Shown here one piece after another: positions 45,341 through 58,807 of a stretch of DNA of 64,000 bases. The notes under the pieces were generated by a model. That model saw nothing but the letters and a program-made list of their open reading frames with translations, was not told where the DNA came from and searched no databases. The DNA comes from a virus (lineage: Duplodnaviria; Caudoviricetes), in the IMG/VR virus record IMGVR_UViG_3300037047_000246, one strand, 5' to 3'. The stretch's first letter is position 1, and every line of letters begins with the position of its first letter. The translations under genes were made by a program, and so were the position numbers.

Positions 45341-45733
45341 ATGGCAGATCCGGAAGATTGCGACGTCACCAGGCAGCACGGTCCAGACGACCCGGTCAAT
45401 CCGAATCCTGGTCAGTGCACGCTTTGCACTGGAGACACGAGGGACAACATATTTTTCACGCCCCGTGCGCCAGGTTTTGCCGGCAGGTGCATCTTGGACG
45501 AGATGACGTACGAGCAGGTAGAGCTGGTGCTGCTTCGCAGTCCAAGAGCTAAAGGAGACTTGCTGCGCATCACGTCAAACCCGACCTTGGTCACGATGGC
45601 CAGAAACTCAAGGCTTGTCGAAAATCCGGCTGACGACAACGAAAATATGCGCAAACGGCTCCATGCCAACAGCTTGCCGTTCTACACCCTGTTTAAGGGA
45701 AATCAGGACGGGACGCCCACAGGGAGGCGTTAA
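45341..45733 (+). CDS. Hypothetical protein
   Basis: GAGG RBS, start MADPED; TTAA stop overlap with the convergent nuclease gene. Confidence 0.5.
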   Translation: MADPEDCDVTRQHGPDDPVNPNPGQCTLCTGDTRDNIFFTPRAPGFAGRCILDEMTYEQVELVLLRSPRAKGDLLRITSNPTLVTMARNSRLVENPADDNENMRKRLHANSLPFYTLFKGNQDGTPTGRR

Positions 45734-47304
45734 CCTGCTCCGGGACGGCACCAGACCCACCGCTTCTTGCCGAGGTCCCAAATTTTGGCGTATCCCTGGC
45801 TTTGCCGCAGCAGGCTCTCGGTTTGGGGATACCCATTTGGCTTTCTAAGACCCGATTTGTGGTGTCTGCGTCTGCCTTTGACCCAGTAGTAATCTGGCTT
45901 GACATCCCCGTCGAACACAAAGCCGAGCTTGCCGTACACCCCACCGTTGAACAACCTGTTGTCGGAGAACGAAACAATGGACTGAGGGCAGTGTTGGCGC
46001 ACAAACACTCGCAGCAGCTTTGACCAGATCCCGTGCGCTCGGTATGCCGGGTCGGAAGTCATGCGCACGAGCTCCCAGTCGTGCTTCGACTGGCGGCTTG
46101 GACGCTTGAAGGACACACATGCGATCAGCTTGCCGCCGTACGATGCGCCAACATTGACGCTGGCGCGAGCCCCGCCCAAATAATGGAAGCTGTCGTGAAG
46201 AGCGTCTGCCGACCGGCAGTCTACGAAGCCGACATCGCACGCTGACGGTCTAAGCGACTCTGGCTTGTGCGTGCCAAGCCTGTTCGCTATGATGTCGCAC
46301 ATTTTGGCTTTACTGAAAGCCCACTCGTCCTCGTATATTGCCAATAGCTCGAATCCGTGGTCTATCGAATTCAGGTACTTGGCCGAGTCCCGGCGCCGTG
46401 ACTCAGGGCTTGAATGCCAGCGAAGACCGTGGTGCTCTATGAGCAATCGGCAGTCCGGCACGCCAACATCATAAGCGAGTTTGCCTACTTTGTACTCCAT
46501 GATAGGGTGCGCTCCCAGCGTCCGCACAGCATCCAGTATTTGCTGTTGCGCGTCGCTGACGTGACCGGCTGCGCATCCGCATGTTAACGAACGGCCAATT
46601 CTTATGTCGTCCCATCTAGGATGGTATTCTGCTCCGCAGGCTGCACACGTGGCTCGCACTGGTTCGCCAGTGTTGACGATGCTTTTCGCGATAGCAACCC
46701 CGCCAGGCGGCATTTGCGTCATGCAAATCGGAGTGCGCAACGCACGCAAGTCGTCCTTGTGCGCCTCATACCAAGCAGCAACTGAGGTGCGGCACCTCCC
46801 GCAGCTTTTCGTATTGAGCCTTGTGACACGTATGATCGGCAAGTCAACTTCGCGGCCGCACGTGCAGACCCAGGTTACGAGCTTCGCTGAGGATGGGTGC
46901 GCATCTACCGGCCGCTTCATCCGCAATCTGCCGAACTTCTTGCCCGCCCACTCCTCGGCAGGCAAAACGTTGCATTTGCCACAAGTTGTCGTAAGGCCCT
47001 TGCTCACCGTGACAATTGCGGCCTGTGTTGTTTTGCCGCAATCGCAAAGCCAAATCGCCCGCTTGTTGGAGCCAGTGCTGGTCGGCTGCGGATGCAACAT
47101 TCGCAGCCGACCATACTTGGTGCTTGCCCAGTGCTCGGCTGGCAGAACATTGCACTTGCCGCACGATTTCCTGTGGCCGCGGGCAAAATCAATCCACTTG
47201 ACCGGTATGCCTGTGTTGCCGCATACGCAGTCAAACAGGACAATCTTTCCTGAGCCCGCTGATGGCAGGATCTGGCCTGGTGTTGGTGTCAGTCGCGTCT
47301 GCAT
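45730..47304 (-). CDS. Hef-like free-standing endonuclease 1: 3 Zn-ribbon repeats, Vsr/DUF559-like nuclease, GNAT-fold domain
   Basis: CxCG...SCGxC repeats; YDV...IEHHGLRWH...YEDEW; YRAHGIWSKLL and YGKLGF (GNAT motifs A/B); start taken as MQTRL. Confidence 0.75.
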   Translation of the reverse strand: MQTRLTPTPGQILPSAGSGKIVLFDCVCGNTGIPVKWIDFARGHRKSCGKCNVLPAEHWASTKYGRLRMLHPQPTSTGSNKRAIWLCDCGKTTQAAIVTVSKGLTTTCGKCNVLPAEEWAGKKFGRLRMKRPVDAHPSSAKLVTWVCTCGREVDLPIIRVTRLNTKSCGRCRTSVAAWYEAHKDDLRALRTPICMTQMPPGGVAIAKSIVNTGEPVRATCAACGAEYHPRWDDIRIGRSLTCGCAAGHVSDAQQQILDAVRTLGAHPIMEYKVGKLAYDVGVPDCRLLIEHHGLRWHSSPESRRRDSAKYLNSIDHGFELLAIYEDEWAFSKAKMCDIIANRLGTHKPESLRPSACDVGFVDCRSADALHDSFHYLGGARASVNVGASYGGKLIACVSFKRPSRQSKHDWELVRMTSDPAYRAHGIWSKLLRVFVRQHCPQSIVSFSDNRLFNGGVYGKLGFVFDGDVKPDYYWVKGRRRHHKSGLRKPNGYPQTESLLRQSQGYAKIWDLGKKRWVWCRPGAG

Positions 47305-47998
47305 TATTTCTGACCAGTGGGCCGCCGTAATATCCAGCCACTGCCCGATCCACCACGATATGTGCTTTTTCCGTGACCAATTTGGTGAGGTCCATATCCA
47401 GCACGTATGCAAGAATAAAAGAATAAATAACGACATCGGGCAACTCAGACACTACGGCTCCCAATAACTGCTGATCCGCGTTGCCTCCGTTGCGGAGCGC
47501 TTTAACCATTTTATTCAAACATTCTCCAGCTTCAGCTGACACAGCTGCCGCATAATAGAATGCCGGGTTCTGACCATAGGCTTCCTTCTCACCCATCTGC
47601 TTGATGCGGCACAGCACCTTGTGCGATTCGACAATGGCCGAGAAGATGTCGTCCATAGCCGCTTCACGCTCCCCAACCAGTTCCTTGATTCGTTGGTCGA
47701 TGGTGCTGAATACGCCGTTGACTTCGAAAGTGGCGCTTCTGGCTTCGTCTCGCAGCCGTCGCAGTTCGTCGATTCTGGCGTCAATCTCGGACCGGGTTCG
47801 CTTGGGGATGAAGTCAGTGTGGGTTACCGGGCTGGCTTCTTGCAACACCAAAGACTTGCCAAATACGCCGACGCATTCCCCCGGTTCTTGCGGCTCTGGC
47901 TGCAGCCATACAATTCCAGCGTCGTCGGAGCAGTCGTGAACCGAATGCAGACGGCCGCGAAACATCAAAGTTTGGCCAACCCTAATTGTGTCAAGCAT
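47231..47998 (-). CDS. MazG-like NTP pyrophosphohydrolase with an N-terminal extension
   Basis: AEAGECLNKMVK...SELPDVVIYSFILA..LDMDL...K; the C-terminus runs into the nuclease ORF. Confidence 0.75.
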   Translation of the reverse strand: MLDTIRVGQTLMFRGRLHSVHDCSDDAGIVWLQPEPQEPGECVGVFGKSLVLQEASPVTHTDFIPKRTRSEIDARIDELRRLRDEARSATFEVNGVFSTIDQRIKELVGEREAAMDDIFSAIVESHKVLCRIKQMGEKEAYGQNPAFYYAAAVSAEAGECLNKMVKALRNGGNADQQLLGAVVSELPDVVIYSFILAYVLDMDLTKLVTEKAHIVVDRAVAGYYGGPLVRNNADATDTNTRPDPAISGLRKDCPV

Positions 47999-51220: not shown

Positions 51221-52527
51221 TCGTGAGGCTTGCAGGCAACAGGCCTGCTGCATGTAGGACAACTCGGGATTGAAGACAGATCTGCCAAAACCGAGTCCAA
51301 ATCTTTGTCTGTTTGCTTTTGTTGCACTTTAAGTTCAGCCACTTCCCGCTGCAGCTGCAGCATCTCCGCCATTGCAGCCTTTGCTTTTGACACCCCGGAC
51401 AGCTGCGAGGAAAGGTTTGGATCTGGCGGCACAGACGCTTCCGCGTCCAGCGTATTCACAGAGTGGCGCAAACCGGACAGGCTCTTGTGCAGCACTTTTG
51501 CAGCGGCCACTCTCGCTATGTCACAACTGTCGGGGGGCTGAGGCAGATCGATTTCGCCGATTGCTTCGAGCGTCTGCACAGTCTGCTTCAGCTGCCTCAG
51601 CCCGGAGTACTTCTTGATTCGCAGCCACGCTTCGTGCTCCTTCGCAGGCACGTCCGGCAAAAACAGCATTTTTGTGCCCCTCAAAGCGATGATGGCGCGG
51701 GCTGCCTCCTCCAGTCGCCTGAGTCTGGACTTCATTTCAAGTGTATTGGCTACCTGGTCTGCCATCCCGTTGTGGGGGATGGATACCGCGCCCACAGGCC
51801 CGAGCACGTCCACCAAAACAGAGAGTTTGGAAATCGACTCTAGAAGCTCCTTGGCTCTAGTTACCTTGTCTCCGTACTCGTTGATTGAGTCGTGCTGGTG
51901 CTCCAGCTCTTTGACTATCGTTTCCAGCTCAGGCAAGTTGCCGACCTTGGCCAAATTGGACTCGCATTGCTCAACTTCGGCTTCGGCCGATTTCAGGTCT
52001 TCCAGCGATTTGCGCTTGCCCTTCAAACCAAGCGATATTGCATCCTGCAGAACGTTCAGCCCTGATATTTCAGATATGAACTGCGTTATGGTCGGCCCGC
52101 CTTCGTCGAGCAAAAACAATGGGCTCCACTGAGACGCATACCACGGATGCATTTCTCTGTCGCCAATGCGCACTGCGCCGAATCCGAACTTGCCAATCGG
52201 CTCTGGCGGCTTTTGGCCCACATTTTCCAGTTTCTCCGGGCGCCCATCTATGCAATACCGATTCAGCCCTTTCTCCGCTTTCTCCCACAGAAACCCCCAC
52301 GGTTTCCCGTCGGCCTCGGAAGAGATGCGCACAGAGCATGATTTGGATCCGGTGCGCACCAGGTTGGTGACTGGTTTGTTGAGCAAAGCGCCGGAAATCG
52401 CCCGCAGGATGCTAGATTTGCCTATGTTGGTAGGGCCTGTAATGCATGTGAACCCGGCTATCTCGATGTCGAGATCTGCTATCGACTGATAGTTCTTGAT
52501 TGTCACGCGGACTGGATGCAGTTTCAT
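51211..52527 (-). CDS. Rad50/SbcC N-terminal half ending at the Zn hook
   Basis: IKNYQSI, GPTNIGKSS, Q-loop (ASQW), coiled coil, terminal CPTC; no signature or Walker B half; GGAGG RBS. Confidence 0.8.
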   Translation of the reverse strand: MKLHPVRVTIKNYQSIADLDIEIAGFTCITGPTNIGKSSILRAISGALLNKPVTNLVRTGSKSCSVRISSEADGKPWGFLWEKAEKGLNRYCIDGRPEKLENVGQKPPEPIGKFGFGAVRIGDREMHPWYASQWSPLFLLDEGGPTITQFISEISGLNVLQDAISLGLKGKRKSLEDLKSAEAEVEQCESNLAKVGNLPELETIVKELEHQHDSINEYGDKVTRAKELLESISKLSVLVDVLGPVGAVSIPHNGMADQVANTLEMKSRLRRLEEAARAIIALRGTKMLFLPDVPAKEHEAWLRIKKYSGLRQLKQTVQTLEAIGEIDLPQPPDSCDIARVAAAKVLHKSLSGLRHSVNTLDAEASVPPDPNLSSQLSGVSKAKAAMAEMLQLQREVAELKVQQKQTDKDLDSVLADLSSIPSCPTCSRPVACKPHDHA

Positions 52528-52538
52528 GTCCGCCTCCG

Positions 52539-53876
52539 TCAAACCATGTCAGCCGTGATTTCAGATACTCCTGCGGCCACGCCGTCTTCTTCAACCTCAC
52601 CATCTTCGTTTACGGACACGCCGTCTGCATTCACAACTTCGCCGCCATCGTCCGACTCGTAGTCTTCGTCGTCCCCTTCGCGCTTAGTGACTGCGTCCTC
52701 GGCCAGCTGCGCTAGCTGTTCGTCGTCCAGCACCTTAAAGCCTTGCAAGATGTTCTCGACGCATCCGTTGACCAACTCGTCGGTCAACTTGAGCTTGGTC
52801 ATTTCCATCCGGAAACGCTCAATTCCGACCACCTCGACCTTTTGGCCGCCGGCAGACGAGTACGAGTAGGTCTCTTGCCTCTTGGCGTTCTTGCCGATCT
52901 TGATGAGCTTATATGCCTGCGCAACGTTCAACATGGTGCGCAGCTCGTCGATGCCGACGCCGTACCGGATTGTGATGAGCCCAGCATGACCCTGGGTCGC
53001 ATCGATCTTGTTTTTGATCATCTTGACTTCGATGTCGGTCGAAATCTGCACATCTTCCATGCTGCGCGTCAGCGGGTTCCACAACTTGGCTTTAGCTGAC
53101 ATGCGCGGCTTCAGCATCATGCGCACGCTTGCCCAGAATTTCAGGGCGTTGCCGCCGGTCGTGGACTTGAGGGCTTCCTCGCTCTTGGCAAATTTGGACA
53201 CGCCAATCTTGTCTCTGGTCTGATTCAGAAACATGCAGTGCGTGCCCGTCCTGGCAATGATGCTCTGGAGTTTGGGCATCCACTGAGACATCAGGCGAGG
53301 AATTTCCGCCACGCCCATCTTCTCGTCTTCATTGGACGTGTCTCGCTTGATTTCGCGACTGGACACCAGACCAGCCACGGAGTCTATGACGATGAAGTCC
53401 ACGCCCTGCAAACAAGCGTTCATCACCAGGGCCTCAGTCTCCTCGAACGTGTGCGGCTGGACCCGGATGGCGCGGCCCTCACCGCCAACTTCTGGCGGTC
53501 GGAAATCTACGCCTAACTTCATGGCATAGTGGTCCTGCACTGCGCATTCGAGATCGACGTACAAGCCGCAGCCGTCTTCTCCTCCCCGACGGAGAGCATG
53601 TGCCATGGCTGTCATGGCGATGGTGGACTTGCCTGAGCTCTCGCGACCAAATACCTCAGAAATCTTGCCTCGGGGCCATCCAGGGCACACAAAGGTGCCG
53701 TCCGGCAATCTGGTTCCGCCAATCAGCAAGTTCAGGATGGTGCTGCCGGTCGGCGTGTAGTCCTGCTGAAACTTCGGCGTGACGAACACCCCCCTGATAT
53801 TTGTCCGCTTTTCGATGGACTCGGTGAATTTCTTGAGCTTGGGATGAAGTTTGACTGCGGCTGCCGATTTCGCCAT
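52539..53876 (-). CDS. recA: RecA recombinase
   Basis: PTGS..LN, PRGKISEVFGRESSGKST, VIDSVAGL, FLNQTRDKIG, TTGGNALKFWAS. Confidence 0.97.
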   Translation of the reverse strand: MAKSAAAVKLHPKLKKFTESIEKRTNIRGVFVTPKFQQDYTPTGSTILNLLIGGTRLPDGTFVCPGWPRGKISEVFGRESSGKSTIAMTAMAHALRRGGEDGCGLYVDLECAVQDHYAMKLGVDFRPPEVGGEGRAIRVQPHTFEETEALVMNACLQGVDFIVIDSVAGLVSSREIKRDTSNEDEKMGVAEIPRLMSQWMPKLQSIIARTGTHCMFLNQTRDKIGVSKFAKSEEALKSTTGGNALKFWASVRMMLKPRMSAKAKLWNPLTRSMEDVQISTDIEVKMIKNKIDATQGHAGLITIRYGVGIDELRTMLNVAQAYKLIKIGKNAKRQETYSYSSAGGQKVEVVGIERFRMEMTKLKLTDELVNGCVENILQGFKVLDDEQLAQLAEDAVTKREGDDEDYESDDGGEVVNADGVSVNEDGEVEEDGVAAGVSEITADMV

Positions 53877-53905
53877 AATGCCTCCAGGTGTTATAATACA
53901 CTCGT

Positions 53906-54628
53906 TCAGCCTTCAAGCGTCTTGGCCTGGTCGGCCTCCAGCCACCTGACGAGCATCGAGTTGATGTCGGATTTGGTCGGCAAATCCACCGACCCCTCGG
54001 GAACCCGCGAAAACTCGAAGAACCTGGAGTTTTCGCGGAACACGTGAGCCGTCTTGCGCAGCGACAGAGACCCGTCCGAGCGCTTGCGCTTCTTGGTTCG
54101 AGTCAGAAATGCTGATCGCTCATTGTCGGACAGGTCTTCGGGAGCCAGCATGCCTGCTCGGACTTCCATGAATCGGGCGGCGAACCGGGCGATGCAGTAC
54201 GCGTCCGCCTCGTTATTGTCTATGGTGCCGGACGACATGGTGTCGAGCTGCACGAATCGCTGCATATCCGACTTGGCGAATGTAGACTTGCCCACCATGT
54301 ATTTGACTGTGGTCGGATCGAACAGCACGCAGTCGCGGCGCCGAGCGAATATGGCCTCCAGCGAAAACATCATCAGCCCGAAGTGATTCTCGCTGAAGGG
54401 GCCACCCCCGAACGCCGGCGATTCTATCCCGACCGCCCGGACCTCGTAGCGGCGCAGCAGATCTGCCACCAGCGACCGGAAATGCATGAATCGGGCGACC
54501 GGCACGGTGAGCGGCAAAGTGCCCTCATGGCCTGACGCGACCCGGCGCAAGCGCGGGTCTTTCGCCTGGCTGTCGTATACGCACCATCCGTAGGCTTTTA
54601 GTGATGGGTCAAGACCGAGTGTTAGCAT
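53906..54628 (-). CDS. ruvC: RuvC-like Holliday junction resolvase
   Basis: LGLDPS..AYGW, VGIESP, VKY, DNNEADA. Confidence 0.85.
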   Translation of the reverse strand: MLTLGLDPSLKAYGWCVYDSQAKDPRLRRVASGHEGTLPLTVPVARFMHFRSLVADLLRRYEVRAVGIESPAFGGGPFSENHFGLMMFSLEAIFARRRDCVLFDPTTVKYMVGKSTFAKSDMQRFVQLDTMSSGTIDNNEADAYCIARFAARFMEVRAGMLAPEDLSDNERSAFLTRTKKRKRSDGSLSLRKTAHVFRENSRFFEFSRVPEGSVDLPTKSDINSMLVRWLEADQAKTLEG

Positions 54629-54632
54629 GTAA
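54628..54632 (+). promoter_or_regulatory. TGTAA box at the left edge of the nuclease-2 cassette
   Basis: 14 nt before the ATG at 54647; overlaps the first base of the ruvC start codon. Confidence 0.4.
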
Positions 54633-54646
54633 TGTCTGAGGTGACC

Positions 54647-56410
54647 ATGATGATGACACTAGTCCGCGGGGTTCGATATGGCAGTCTAGAATACATCGGT
54701 GACACAGTCACCATCGGCGAGCGTAGCGCCAAAAAACTAACATTCGCGTGCGACTGCGGGCAACGCACGGAGGTAATGCTGCGCAATGTCGTGCTTGGCA
54801 AAAGCAAATCGTGCGGAAGATGCACAGCGCGGCTCATCAAAACGGGAGACGTGTTTGGTGATCTTACATGGGTGGGTTCCGATGCCTACGTCCAACCGGA
54901 AAGCCAAAAGCAACATCCTTTCCAGTGCAAGTGCGGTCGAGTTAAAAGCATGCGCTTGTTCACGGTCCTGAGGGGGCGGGCCAAAACCTGCGGATTATGC
55001 AACTCGATGGTATTGGCCACAGGCGACAGAGTCCACAGCTTCGAGTATGTCGGGCCTACGGTTGAAATACATGCCGGGTCCAACAAGAGACTCTCGTTCC
55101 AATGCAGCTGCGGGCACACGACGTTCCGTCGCTTTAAGAGCATACGAGCCGAGTCCACATGTGGGCACTGTCGAGACGTGTCGTTGAGTCCAGGCGATCC
55201 ATACAAAAACTTCGTGTATGCAGGCACGCACCCCGTGATCGTCGGGATGTGTAGCAAGAAGAAACTCTTGTTTCAATGCAAATGTGGCAATACCAAGGCA
55301 ATCAGTGTCAATCTAATCACCAGTGGTGATGTTGTGTCGTGCACTGAATGCTATGCGAGGGTCCGCACTGCGTACGCACAGCATCTGGACATGCTTCGCT
55401 CGATAAAATGCCCGATTGACCAGGATGGATTCCCCGAGGGCCTCCCAAGACCTTTGGAAGCCATCAGGAACGTCACAGACTCGTTCGCAATGCCCTGCCC
55501 CGCGTGCGGTCGGATTTACCGACCAAGGCTCAACGACCTGAAACGTCTGAAGTGTTTGACATGCGGATGCACAAATAACGTAGTATCAGGTCAGAATCTA
55601 CAACTGGCGGAGTTCATCCGCGGTCTCGGCTTCACACCCATACAAGAACATCCGATTGGCGGGAAGGTTTTTGACCTATATGTGCCAGAGGCTAGCCTTC
55701 TGGTGGAACTTCAAGGCATCCGGTGGCACTCGAAGCCAGGCAGCGCCGAACGCGAAGGTGCCAAGTATGAGATTGCCAAAGCGTCCGGGAGCACATCGCT
55801 CTGGATATATGAAGACGAATGGAAGCACAGGCGCCGAGCCATCGAGTCGATTGTTGCGCATAAACTTGGCATAAAACCTGATTTCAGGTTGAGACCAAAG
55901 AGCTGCGACATAAGACTGGTGACCAGTAGTGAAGCCAATGCCCTGTACGACGAGTTCCATTACATAGGCCGGTGTGCGTCTCCGTTTAACATCGCTGCTT
56001 TCTATGATGGTCAGATGGTGGCCGCCATGTCATTCAGGAAGCCGTCCAGACAGAGCAAGCATAGCTATGAGATGTCTCGAATGGTCATGAGGCCCAGGTT
56101 CAGAATACACGGGATATGGTCCAAGTTTATGGCCGAATTCCGTGCAACCCACCCGCACTCAAGCATCGTGGCCTACTCGGACAACCGGCTATTTGACGGC
56201 CACACGTACCGAGCAATAGGGTTTACTTATGATGGTGACGTGAAACGCGATTATTATTGGGCGCGCGGCGGTCATCGCTATCACAAGTCAGCGTTGCGCA
56301 AATCCGCTGGCTGTGTCGTGACTGAGAACGCCCTGAGGACCTCGCAGGGGTTTGCGAAGATATGGGACCTAGGCAAAAAGAGGTGGATTCTCGCGTCAAC
56401 CCCAGCGTAA
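54647..56410 (+). CDS. Hef-like free-standing endonuclease 2: 4 Zn-ribbon repeats, Vsr/DUF559-like nuclease, GNAT-fold domain
   Basis: GAGGT RBS; CxCG...SCGxC repeats; FDL...VELQGIRWH...YEDEW; FRIHGIWSKF, YRAIGF and KIWDLGKKRW shared with copy 1. Confidence 0.78.
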   Translation: MMMTLVRGVRYGSLEYIGDTVTIGERSAKKLTFACDCGQRTEVMLRNVVLGKSKSCGRCTARLIKTGDVFGDLTWVGSDAYVQPESQKQHPFQCKCGRVKSMRLFTVLRGRAKTCGLCNSMVLATGDRVHSFEYVGPTVEIHAGSNKRLSFQCSCGHTTFRRFKSIRAESTCGHCRDVSLSPGDPYKNFVYAGTHPVIVGMCSKKKLLFQCKCGNTKAISVNLITSGDVVSCTECYARVRTAYAQHLDMLRSIKCPIDQDGFPEGLPRPLEAIRNVTDSFAMPCPACGRIYRPRLNDLKRLKCLTCGCTNNVVSGQNLQLAEFIRGLGFTPIQEHPIGGKVFDLYVPEASLLVELQGIRWHSKPGSAEREGAKYEIAKASGSTSLWIYEDEWKHRRRAIESIVAHKLGIKPDFRLRPKSCDIRLVTSSEANALYDEFHYIGRCASPFNIAAFYDGQMVAAMSFRKPSRQSKHSYEMSRMVMRPRFRIHGIWSKFMAEFRATHPHSSIVAYSDNRLFDGHTYRAIGFTYDGDVKRDYYWARGGHRYHKSALRKSAGCVVTENALRTSQGFAKIWDLGKKRWILASTPA

Positions 56411-56414
56411 GCAT
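56392..56414 (-). pseudogene. Displaced remnant of the ruvC 5' end (MLTLGL)
   Basis: ATG CTT ACG CTG GGG TTG AC versus the live ruvC ATG CTA ACA CTC GGT CTT GAC; 17 of 23 nt identical with one gap. Confidence 0.75.
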
Positions 56415-56720
56415 TTTGCCAAACTTACGGCGATGAGCCAGCTAAATAAATGCACACAGGCCACGATAGCCACGATGGCCAGAAAGCGCCACCCGCGGCC
56501 CTCGAGACTCGCCATCAACCCCAGGGCTGTCGCACGCCAGCAGCAGCGCAATAAGAATGGATGCCAACTCCCTCCTCGAGAGGGGATGACCGCTAGGCGT
56601 TCATGTCTCGTGACGCTGGCTCACCCGCTTGGCAAACTCCACCATCGTGAGCTTTGTTAGCTCAGTATAGCGGCGTCCAGATGCAGTGTGAGTTTGGCAG
56701 TAGGTGGTCCAAGCGGGAGG

Positions 56721-56748
56721 CTTGGTAGATACGAATCGAACTACCAAG
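56721..56748 (-). terminator. Hairpin downstream of the SSB gene (no U-tract)
   Basis: CTTGGTAG-12 nt-CTACCAAG. Confidence 0.3.
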
Positions 56749-56762
56749 TGAACCGATATTCG

Positions 56763-57656
56763 CTAGGTGAGAAGATCTGAATACGACGACACCAGCTTAG
56801 GCGCTTCAGCCTGGGCGCCAGACGAAATCTGAGCAGAACCGCCGCCACCGCCGCCCAACTGCTGCAGCTTCTCCATCAGCTTGTCTCGCGTCATTTCGAA
56901 GCCGAGGTTCTGCTGCACGTACTTGTAAGCGCGCAGCCCCTGATCCAGCACCCAAGCGCGGGTTTCAGGGTCGCAGTCTTCTCGAGCCCAGAACGCGGTG
57001 GAGGCCGCTTCGATTTGCTGCTTCTGGAACTTGGGATCGCCGTCCAGCGTCACGCGCAGGTCGATGACCTCCCGCTTGTCGTTGCGCGCGTCGGTGTACG
57101 CTGCCTCGAGCTTCTTGAACTTCTTGGCCGACATGGCCCACACGTAGAAATTCGTGTATTTGCGCATCTTGAGCAAATCGGCGTCGACCTGGCCCTTGTC
57201 GTCAATCGGATAGGTCATGATGATGCAGCCGACCTTCTGATCCGCATCGCCAAACTTGTTGCAGCACATTTCCGGCTGTACCATCGTCTGGCCCTCGTAC
57301 TTGCTCAGGCAACGGATGGTGCCGACCCCTTCAGAATAGTGGGTATACGCCATCGAGAACTTGGGCCTGGCGATGTCCAGGCGCTCGCCTTCGGTCAGCT
57401 TGTCCACGGCCTTGCCGAGCTTCTCTGCCAGCTTGGCGTCGATCTTTGCATTGTACTGAGACTTCTCTTCGTCAGTCAGCGGCCGCCCGGCTTCAAGCGC
57501 CTTCTTGGCGAGAATGCCGTCGTGGTGGCGCTTAAAAGACACGATGGTGACGCGGTGCTTCTCGCCGGGGCGGGTCTGCTTGAAAGTTTCGACCCCAACC
57601 ACCTTGATGACCTTGGCATCGTCGAATCCGAATTCCATCACACTTGAGTCACTCAT
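56763..57656 (-). CDS. gp32-like single-stranded DNA-binding protein
   Basis: HY...IRC...CC spacing resembles the gp32 Zn site; short tail ...SYSDLL; recombination-cluster context. Confidence 0.55.
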   Translation of the reverse strand: MSDSSVMEFGFDDAKVIKVVGVETFKQTRPGEKHRVTIVSFKRHHDGILAKKALEAGRPLTDEEKSQYNAKIDAKLAEKLGKAVDKLTEGERLDIARPKFSMAYTHYSEGVGTIRCLSKYEGQTMVQPEMCCNKFGDADQKVGCIIMTYPIDDKGQVDADLLKMRKYTNFYVWAMSAKKFKKLEAAYTDARNDKREVIDLRVTLDGDPKFQKQQIEAASTAFWAREDCDPETRAWVLDQGLRAYKYVQQNLGFEMTRDKLMEKLQQLGGGGGGSAQISSGAQAEAPKLVSSYSDLLT

Positions 57657-57718
57657 TGTCTCTACCTCTTTGTTGAACGCTTTGGACTTTTGGCCATTTG
57701 GCCGTTGATGCAGACACT

Positions 57719-57723
57719 TTACA
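57719..57723 (-). promoter_or_regulatory. TGTAA box upstream of the SSB gene
   Basis: AATTGTAAAGT, 62 nt before the ATG. Confidence 0.45.
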
Positions 57724-57740
57724 ATTGAAAGGCGCCGCTG

Positions 57741-58598
57741 CTAAACATCGTCAAACAGCATAGGCGCCACTGGCTCGACCACGTCGTCGTCGTAAGCCGG
57801 TTTGCGCACTGGCTCCTGCTGGGCGGAGTCACGTGGCCCAATAACAGCCCGATCTTTAATCTGGTCCTGAGGCGGCTTTGAGCTGAAGAAGTCAGCGATC
57901 TGCTGCGCGTGCATCTCGTCCATTGGCTCCGGCATGTCCGCCGGCCTTTTTTCCGGGTCGAGCAAGTCCTTCGGGTCTATTGCGCCCGGGGACACCGGCG
58001 GCGGCATGCCGTCAGGCACCGATCTGTCCTGTCTGGCCTGCGGCTTGCTATATCCATGCTGACCGGCCATTTGCGCATCAGCGTCGTCTCTGACTAGCTG
58101 GCGCTGAGACTTTACGTCCGCGTTAGTTCTGATCAGGTCTTGGTGCTTCAGTTTGACAATCTTGTACGTTTCTGCGGCGTCGAGCAGTTCCAAACGCAAG
58201 GCGGACAGGTTGTCATGCTCCGGTCTGAGCAGCATGGTGGCCAGCGCCTTGCGGTCTTCTATCGATGGCTGCTTGCGCACTTCCGGGTCGTCGGCCAACT
58301 TCTGAGCAAGCTTCAGTTCAAGGTCCAGCTCCATCTGGCGGGTTTCCACCGTGAGCTCCTTGACCTGCTTGCCTATGGTCTGCATGTAGTATATGACCCT
58401 ATTGAGGTATTTGCGACACAGAGCGACGCGACTGTTCAAATACCTGACCCCCAGGTCCGGCAAAGTCGGATCTTCAGCCAATTCGACTTCGAATGCCGCA
58501 ATCTCTTCAAGAATAACCGAGAACTGGTCCGCCGTATACTTCATGGGTATGCGCATCAGTGGTGGCAGAGGTTGAAACGGCCGCAGGGCTGCAGTCAC
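57741..58598 (-). CDS. Coiled-coil protein, possible UvsY-like recombination mediator
   Basis: Helical, directly upstream of the SSB gene; start may be 58544 or 58556. Confidence 0.35.
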   Translation of the reverse strand: MTAALRPFQPLPPLMRIPMKYTADQFSVILEEIAAFEVELAEDPTLPDLGVRYLNSRVALCRKYLNRVIYYMQTIGKQVKELTVETRQMELDLELKLAQKLADDPEVRKQPSIEDRKALATMLLRPEHDNLSALRLELLDAAETYKIVKLKHQDLIRTNADVKSQRQLVRDDADAQMAGQHGYSKPQARQDRSVPDGMPPPVSPGAIDPKDLLDPEKRPADMPEPMDEMHAQQIADFFSSKPPQDQIKDRAVIGPRDSAQQEPVRKPAYDDDVVEPVAPMLFDDV

Positions 58599-58807
58599 TT
58601 TGAACTTACAGCAGCAAGGGACTCTGGCGACAACCTATATCCGCCAACTGTTCGATTTGTGGAGTCCACGTCCATCCCAGTGCGCTTGTCGTATCTTGAG
58701 AACTCGGTCACGACTAGCGTTTTGGTGACCCTAACTATTTGTTCGCGGCGCCGAGGATGGGTCTTGTACAACCCATGTCCGACAGTTTCCACCCATTGGA
58801 CGCTCAT
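58595..58807 (-). CDS. Small hypothetical protein (70 aa)
   Basis: ATGA/GTGA overlaps at both ends. Confidence 0.5.
   Translation of the reverse strand: MSVQWVETVGHGLYKTHPRRREQIVRVTKTLVVTEFSRYDKRTGMDVDSTNRTVGGYRLSPESLAAVSSK

Follow-up and report, generated by a model that had tools for sequence, protein, structure and literature searches.

Results

An antisense nuclease gene separates two versions of the ruvC start

The stretch of DNA analysed here (the window, 64,000 nucleotides (nt)) is part of the 362,524-bp Caudoviricetes record IMGVR_UViG_3300037047_000246, a virus record with terminal repeats that is present in groundwater and coal-seam metagenomes. On its minus strand, genes for a 285-amino-acid (aa) and a 297-aa protein are followed by ruvC, a recA-like gene and an SbcC-like ATPase gene, and between the 297-aa gene and ruvC a 592-aa open reading frame (ORF; 54632..56410) occupies the opposite, plus strand. 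This ORF is predicted from tblastn and PHROG matches to be a Hef-like free-standing homing endonuclease gene (HEG). It separates two versions of the beginning of ruvC, namely a live start, which opens the intact gene, and an orphan start, which is stranded at the far end of the HEG.

The live ruvC (53906..54628, minus strand) is a single unbroken 240-aa frame with its own ATG, and the HEG is antisense to it and outside its frame. It begins ATG CTA ACA CTC GGT CTT GAC (MLTLGLD). The orphan (56395..56414, minus strand) reads ATG CTT ACG CTG GGG TTG AC; it has the ATG and the orientation of ruvC, and corresponds to resident codons 1–6 plus 1–2 nt. Its five codons after the ATG differ from those of the live start at silent positions only, so that MLTLGL is encoded twice, as a preliminary description of this DNA had stated. 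The same description had the old copy break at the codon for Asp7; homology with ruvC does end at nt 18–20, but the Asp codon is not intact, and the frame continues with Thr-Arg (MLTLGL-TR...). A CGTAAGT box that it placed 10 nt from the orphan ATG ends 8 nt ahead of it. The HEG stop codon falls, as described, within the old ruvC bases, the TAA at 56408–56410 being the complement of orphan nt 5–7. All copies of the HEG, paralogues and orthologues alike, are conserved to ...KIWDLGKKRW[VI]x / KKRW[VI][LWM], and their tails beyond this point are unrelated; the A-S-T-P-A-stop that follows ...KKRWIL in the window (56393..56410, plus strand) is therefore a read-through into the orphan, which lies 3–6 nt from the conserved HEG end.

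Six residues make a short repeat, and two 460-nt flanks 1.8 kb apart have a 6-mer peptide in common in 4.9% of cases when sites are drawn at random; the argument for the orphan is therefore one of position. It stands exactly at the conserved end of the HEG, in ruvC orientation and with its ATG included, and ruvC is alone among 448 candidate genes in that its first six residues, or just its first five, are encoded again in the 3 kb ahead of it on its own strand. Both junctions are covered without differences by contigs of three other metagenome runs, and a related locus holds a second, independent case (see below). On these grounds, chance similarity or misassembly is a highly improbable explanation of the orphan.

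The 240-aa product is, judged from profile comparisons, a RuvC-type Holliday junction resolvase. It matches PHROG 159 (E 2e-14), and a profile built from 38 homologues matches the RuvC structures 7W8D, 1HJR, 4EP4, 6S16 and 4LD0 (E 0.002–0.035, residues 1–150). The Pfam family PF02075 is matched by 22 of the 38 homologues (best E 1.2e-7), the window RuvC itself giving no match at E < 0.01, and sequence searches of PDB with single proteins, the HEG product included, returned no match. Residues D7, E69, E140 and D142 are invariant across the 38 homologues, and D7, E69 and D142 align in the profile comparison with Asp7, Glu66 and Asp141 of E. coli RuvC; the orphan thus breaks at the first catalytic Asp codon. 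No ribosome-binding site or promoter-like site was found ahead of the live ruvC, either by inspection of the sequence or in a sigma-70 and terminator scan of 54300–56900, whose counts were not above those of shuffles and are uninformative on ruvC transcription. The long antisense leader that the preliminary description proposed for ruvC is speculative.

The orphan ATG is also the beginning of a frame of 63 aa that runs antisense to the HEG (56223..56414, minus strand); the corresponding frame in L060, a related locus described below, ends after 7 codons, so a conserved product is unlikely.

The nuclease gene belongs to a multi-copy Hef-like family

By sequence, the 592-aa protein is a member of the Hef-like homing endonucleases. 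In tblastn searches it matched the Hef-like homing endonucleases of Campylobacter phages and others, in 392 phage records (best E about 1e-29 to 3e-29), with matches spanning 74–89% of the query; against PHROG 559 it aligned over nearly the full profile (E 1.4e-61), and PHROG 3339 was matched with E 5e-43. Eleven HEG paralogues are present in this genome. Orthologues at the same site in related genomes are 57–61% identical in amino-acid sequence and align from the third ATG of the ORF, so translation probably starts at 54647–54653 and not at 54632. The 5' leader (54629..54652) holds a TGTAA, a GAGGTGA ribosome-binding site and the triplet ATG ATG ATG, in agreement with the TGTAA and GAGGT motifs reported earlier. 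The TGTAA (54628–54632) overlaps the complement of the ruvC ATG, and a 'GTAAT' adjoining the ruvC start is conserved in the loci L060, L065 and L068. Both GAGGTG/GGTGAC and TGTAA are enriched ahead of genes genome-wide. Over the whole genome, 25 TGTAA motifs (5.7 expected) stand in the 45 nt ahead of candidate genes, with a cluster 13–17 nt ahead of ATGs that have no Shine-Dalgarno sequence. The motif may act as a phage promoter or short-leader signal, or may in part be the stop codon of the preceding gene.

Members of the family combine repeated treble-clef Zn fingers with a REase_MTES_1575/Vsr-like core and a GNAT domain of the Mom-like kind. The predicted nuclease core (about aa 320–405; 55589..55846, plus strand) carries the pattern FD...E-L-Q-G-x-R-W-H, whose residues are invariant in HEG alignment A3. 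PF18741 matches the orthologues and paralogues with E 2e-7 to 7e-4, all below Pfam's cut-off. The Mom-like, GNAT-fold domain (aa 427–560; 55910..56311, plus strand) is recognised by PF25680 (E 0.0036) and PHROG 1384 (5e-10), and its homologues score above the Pfam cut-off. Among the orthologues dN is 0.33–0.36 and silent sites are saturated, and the HEG is therefore maintained by selection. The public gene call for it, protein P0124, covers just the C-terminal 57% (339 aa), and the Zn-finger half has thus been missed by automatic annotation.

A second Hef-like paralogue (45730..47436, minus strand) is 39% identical and oriented like its neighbours. Its 5' region overlaps the 3' end of an upstream 255-aa gene (47231..47998), and no duplicated terminus was seen there. 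Around the ten remaining Hef-like copies, the only peptides that the flanks had in common were 5-mers, at the chance rate and none at a gene terminus; so far, an orphan is peculiar to the copy associated with ruvC.

Related loci show the element intact, decayed and absent

About 45 related loci were compared, and the presence of the HEG was scored at 7 loci with it and 25 without. The order of the 285-aa gene, the 297-aa gene, ruvC and recA is conserved in all relatives, which makes the 297-aa gene (56763..57656, minus strand), a conserved gene of unknown function, a synteny anchor. In the HEG-free loci L013, L014, L015, L018, L020, L021, L025, L062 and L070, the 297-aa gene is followed by ruvC at a distance of 10–250 nt, and locus P0006 has the same layout, judged from gene calls only.

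Two HEG-free relatives of similar G+C content, L024 (RuvC 80% identical) and L062 (77%), bear on the ancestral context. Each has a single ruvC start, ATG CTG ACG CTG GGG CTC GAC in L024 and ATG CTG ACG TTG GGA CTC GAC in L062, which is the arrangement that the preliminary description had predicted for relatives lacking the element; no HEG-free relative with the CTA ACA CTC version was seen. The combination ACG-CTG-GGG is common to the orphan and to live starts of the L024/L062 type, and is not found in the live start of the window. Compared with the live start of L024, the orphan agrees at 15 of 18 nt and the window's live start at 13 of 18, a margin that is small because the segment is short. 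In both relatives a small hydrophobic ORF ends right at the ruvC ATG. The window has a small hydrophobic ORF of 51 aa (56396..56551, minus strand) whose tail runs through the orphan, and just ahead of the ATG its SWLIAVSL faces AWLIAVFL in the relatives. From this position and local match (BLAST E 0.07), the two small ORFs are probably homologous, in line with the earlier expectation that the region from 56415 onwards would resemble the DNA ahead of ruvC in HEG-free relatives. The small ORF at L024:200-270 contains a 15-nt tandem repeat (Gly-Leu-Ala-Gly-Ala units), and the frame changes across the repeat.

An antisense Hef-like gene stands about 20 nt from the ruvC start in L060/L061, L065, L027, L028, L050 and L064 and in two further contigs (ERZ1426824 and ERZ27247916), whose HEG stops are followed by gaps of 330 nt and 61 nt. 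At the same site in L068 (L068:4035-4491) there is an HEG remnant, antisense before ruvC, in which aa 1–124 are joined to 564–589, and the remnant in L069 (L069:1358-1809) has the same internal deletion and an extra frameshift. These remnants are a decayed stage of the same element, as a cycle of invasion, decay and loss predicts. Scans of IMG/VR with the HEG protein, with a five-member HEG alignment (two distant 25% matches only) and with a DNA pattern of the HEG-type ruvC start added no HEG-bearing ruvC locus. A 5-kb megablast query had no counterpart among 50,697 phage records.

Other relatives have other cargo between the 297-aa gene and ruvC: a gene for a sigma-70-like factor on the opposite strand in L012 (L012:4527-5861, minus strand), a GIY-YIG endonuclease gene and fibre-like genes, with a Gly/Ser/Thr-rich protein, in L017 (L017:2525-5998), and two unknown ORFs in L016 (L016:4061-5977). 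Because this cargo is unrelated from one relative to the next, the gap is an insertion hot spot. A GIY-YIG gene also lies just past the Hef gene in L060 (L060:2-877) and persists as a frameshifted C-terminal remnant in L065 (5760-6028, minus strand), so that two unrelated homing endonuclease genes have been stacked at one spot; an intact homologue of this gene follows the 297-aa gene in L017. At L055:596-1109, ruvC residues 1–72 are encoded on one strand and residues 123–222 then follow on the other, which would reflect an inversion or a chimeric contig.

A second orphan points to separate insertions at one breakpoint

In locus L060 (RuvC 86% identical to that of the window), ruvC is separated by 22 nt from an orthologous HEG, again antisense, and on the far side of this HEG lies an orphan of its own. 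This orphan, ATG CTC ACG CTC GGA CTC G, breaks at nt 19 and is followed by unrelated bases. It lies within the tail of the GIY-YIG endonuclease ORF, and a spacer of 85 nt with a hairpin separates it from the Hef stop; the far junction is thus unlike that of the window, where HEG and orphan are 0–6 nt apart. Beside the orphan position, L060 and L065 share a TAGCG...TTAG similarity that is too weak to interpret.

Two orphans with one breakpoint could be the same relic if a single ancient insertion had been inherited vertically by all HEG-bearing lineages and lost many times. The position and orientation of the HEG are identical everywhere, all HEG-bearing genomes fall in one well-supported clade of 15 rows in the RuvC tree, and the deep divergence of the HEGs themselves (57–61% identity with saturated dS) is what an old resident would show. 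The two orphans, however, differ at 5 of 18 nt, all silent, and both retain an intact ATG, which under vertical inheritance would be luck or the result of some other constraint. Core genes of the window and L060 have a dS of about 1.1 and are only 51% identical at four-fold sites; an unselected 18-nt relic of that age should be scrambled, differing at about half its sites and at any codon position (p < 0.01, roughly). Both orphans would therefore have been cut from a working ruvC separately and more recently, and the differing far junctions agree with separate insertions. The distribution of the element also argues against a single old event. HEG-bearing and HEG-free rows are interspersed in the RuvC tree, with at least 4–5 changes and three pairs in which an HEG-free row is sister to an HEG-bearing one, and HEG-free L020 lacks the HEG-type start. 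HEG and RuvC identities are discordant, with 86% for RuvC and 61% for the HEG between the window and L060 and, in the opposite sense, 68% for RuvC and 75% for the HEG between L065 and the P0121 contig. We therefore think it unlikely that one ancient insertion accounts for the two orphans.

The live start has the composition of a foreign allele

The live start and the orphan differ in composition. At the same codons, G or C occupies the third position (GC3) in 4 of 5 cases in the orphan, as in resident genes, and in 1 of 5 in the live start. Codons 2–10 of the live ruvC have a GC3 of 2/9, compared with 0.79 in the rest of the gene (binomial, about 5e-4), and the live start of L060 is likewise at 2/9, compared with 0.78. 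Among 261 genes, a GC3 that low at the start is seen in 4.2%, and in HEG-free L024 and L062 the corresponding values are 9/9 and 7/9.

The low-GC3 segment has a counterpart in other HEG-bearing loci. The silent-site pattern ACA CTC GGT NTN GAC CCA is common to the window and to HEG-bearing L060 and L065, the latter of lower G+C content. Over nt 4–33, L060 is identical to L065 at 27 of 30 positions, as opposed to 61% in the rest of the gene (Fisher 5e-4), and the match includes AGT for Ser9, for which the nearest kin of L060 have TCN, a switch of codon family. Between L065 and HEG-free L020, which are 88–90% identical, the first 24 nt of ruvC contain 5 differences and the next 58 contain 1; at four of the five, L065 agrees with the window and L060. 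From GC3 and the silent-site pattern, the replacement segment in the window (54596..54628, minus strand) takes in codons 1–8 with certainty and possibly up to 11, and the donor tract probably ends by codon 8. The live start is thus probably a donor allele from a lower-GC lineage that was copied in with the HEG.

The preliminary description had instead regarded the live start as a recoded replacement. The silent differences on which it drew are there, while the composition points to a foreign donor allele instead of recoding in place. In a scenario of recoding in place, the HEG would have inserted just 5' of ruvC with a short local duplication of the first ~19 nt, and the live copy would then have been recoded where it stands, selection favouring either cleavage resistance or room for the HEG promoter. 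In favour of the last point, the interval between the two starts is only about 20 nt, which would place the HEG promoter inside ruvC codons 1–15; the TGTAA that overlaps the ruvC ATG is conserved in HEG-bearing loci, and A/T-rich silent sites would suit a promoter. Known homing endonucleases, however, leave overhangs of a few nucleotides, not 19; seg enzymes, for example, produce 2-nt 3' extensions (PMC2988022). Moreover, it is the orphan and not the live copy that fits the codon usage of this genome and of HEG-free relatives, and in L060 the 27/30 match to another lineage, together with the switch between Ser codon families, indicates import and not stepwise drift. Duplication followed by recoding in place consequently has little probability in our assessment.

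Discussion

The arrangement at this ruvC locus is that of a free-standing gene inserted within the first codons of another gene: no self-splicing element is present, the ruvC frame is uninterrupted, and, as the preliminary description had it, the working start travels with an intron-less and intein-less element while the resident start is stranded beyond it. We consider it likely that a Hef-like HEG has homed repeatedly into ruvC at the Leu6/Asp7 boundary, with the donor start copied and the resident start left in place. In such an event, a co-infecting phage would supply the HEG product, and the resident ruvC would be cleaved close to the boundary between codons Leu6 and Asp7 (nt 18–19). For site-specific cleavage, the break at nt 18–19 common to both orphans is indirect evidence only. 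The downstream end of the break would be repaired on the donor ruvC, so that the first 8–10 donor codons and the antisense HEG, with its own promoter-like motif and ribosome-binding site, are copied in. The DNA upstream is hypervariable and would offer no homology, and the upstream end of the break may then be joined illegitimately to the far end of the HEG. The first six resident codons would be left as the orphan, into which the HEG frame reads to reach a stop. Homing of the ordinary kind, between homologous flanks, would not produce an orphan, and L065 would be a case of this. The imported start may itself be a poor substrate for the enzyme and so escape cleavage, and the HEG promoter may lie within ruvC codons 1–15, given that the TGTAA overlapping the ruvC ATG is enriched genome-wide and conserved in HEG-bearing loci.

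Several observations weigh against this reading. Contigs of four metagenome runs covering 52500–58600 contained identical sequence only and no HEG-less allele of this phage, so the pre-insertion state is inferred from relatives with at most 80% RuvC identity, and the match of the small ORFs that ties the orphan to the ancestral context is weak. L065 and L068 carry the HEG (in L068 as a remnant) without a recognisable orphan at the far junction. Low GC3 occurs at the start of 4% of genes in any case, and the mosaic is weak in the window itself, where nt 4–33 match L065 at 22 of 30 positions compared with 61% elsewhere (p = 0.13); a sliding identity profile of the window and L060 along ruvC showed no clear gradient of co-conversion. 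No consistent silent-site difference separates all HEG-bearing from all HEG-free starts, and cleavage resistance is therefore not evident from the sequence. Finally, the nuclease domain is sub-threshold, the window HEG protein itself having no PF18741 match at E < 0.01.

A more specific possibility, which we put forward tentatively, is that the mobile unit is a 'cut, replace and immunise' cassette consisting of the antisense HEG and about 25–30 nt of ruvC start, captured by end joining or microhomology. The short ruvC segment would then at once encode the N-terminus with the catalytic Asp, house the HEG promoter and be a non-substrate for the enzyme. Such a cassette would need no upstream homology and could jump between huge-phage lineages whose flanks are over-diverged.

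The closest parallels to repeated homing with a carried terminus come from fungal mitochondria, where mobile ORFs (mORFs) form hybrid genes, as in atp6 of Allomyces macrogynus (Paquin, Laforest and Lang 1994) and atp6, atp9, cox2 and nad3 of Glomus, importing a foreign gene terminus while the native terminus is kept as a duplicate (PMC3630166). As in those elements, an endonuclease ORF here comes with a probably foreign terminus of the host gene that replaces the resident one, the protein sequence being kept while the DNA differs, and the resident terminus persists as an untranslated duplicate that is closer to relatives. Unlike the fungal cases, in which the 3' end is exchanged and the ORF is fused in frame or co-transcribed downstream, the exchange at ruvC concerns the 5' end and 6–10 codons only, and the HEG is antisense and predicted to be expressed separately from its own ribosome-binding site. 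The host is a huge phage, and the protein combines Zn-finger, REase-like and Mom-like parts instead of being a GIY-YIG or LAGLIDADG enzyme. By analogy, then, the ruvC HEG works like an mORF element without being a member of that group.

Phage free-standing homing endonucleases are usually described between genes and as spreading by fully homologous repair. Intronless homing of this kind is documented in T-even phages for SegF, SegG, SegE, MobE and Hef of phage U5, with co-conversion of flanking DNA (PMC2988022). The ruvC HEG resembles these in being free-standing, in standing beside a conserved gene of DNA metabolism, in its patchy distribution and co-converted flank, and in spread by break and repair, which we infer here. 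The T-even genes, however, lie between genes, their cut is often hundreds of bases away, both flanks are homologous and no orphan is left, whereas at ruvC the putative cut is the insertion point within coding sequence and one junction would be illegitimate. Gene-splitting HEGs, such as mobE in nrdA of Aeromonas phage Aeh1 and mobA in T4 gene 60/39 (PMC2988022), are likewise free-standing genes in a critical, conserved part of a gene whose function survives, but there two polypeptides reassemble, while ruvC remains whole through its substitute start and the displaced piece amounts to six codons. The Hef proteins of Campylobacter phages (Hef71 and Hef73 of NCTC12673 and relatives) belong to the same family, are multi-copy and combine a nuclease with a C-terminal Mom-like region; they are only 22–26% identical to the window HEG. 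The literature searched contained no phage example of an imported gene terminus together with a stranded native one, and to our knowledge the substitute-terminus solution is undescribed in phages.

We are aware of almost no HEG cleavage sites from uncultured phages. The displaced start could serve as a natural map of such a target, here the part of ruvC that encodes the catalytic Asp motif, with the same breakpoint in two phages, and the locus offers a pair of substrates, of the orphan type and of the live type, for a nuclease family that is abundant in huge phages. Among the relatives, the element can be followed at one site in its intact, decayed and absent states. By carrying a substitute terminus, an HEG can enter an essential gene with neither intron nor intein and without splitting it, and recombination of this kind would transfer short pieces of such genes from one diverged phage lineage to another.

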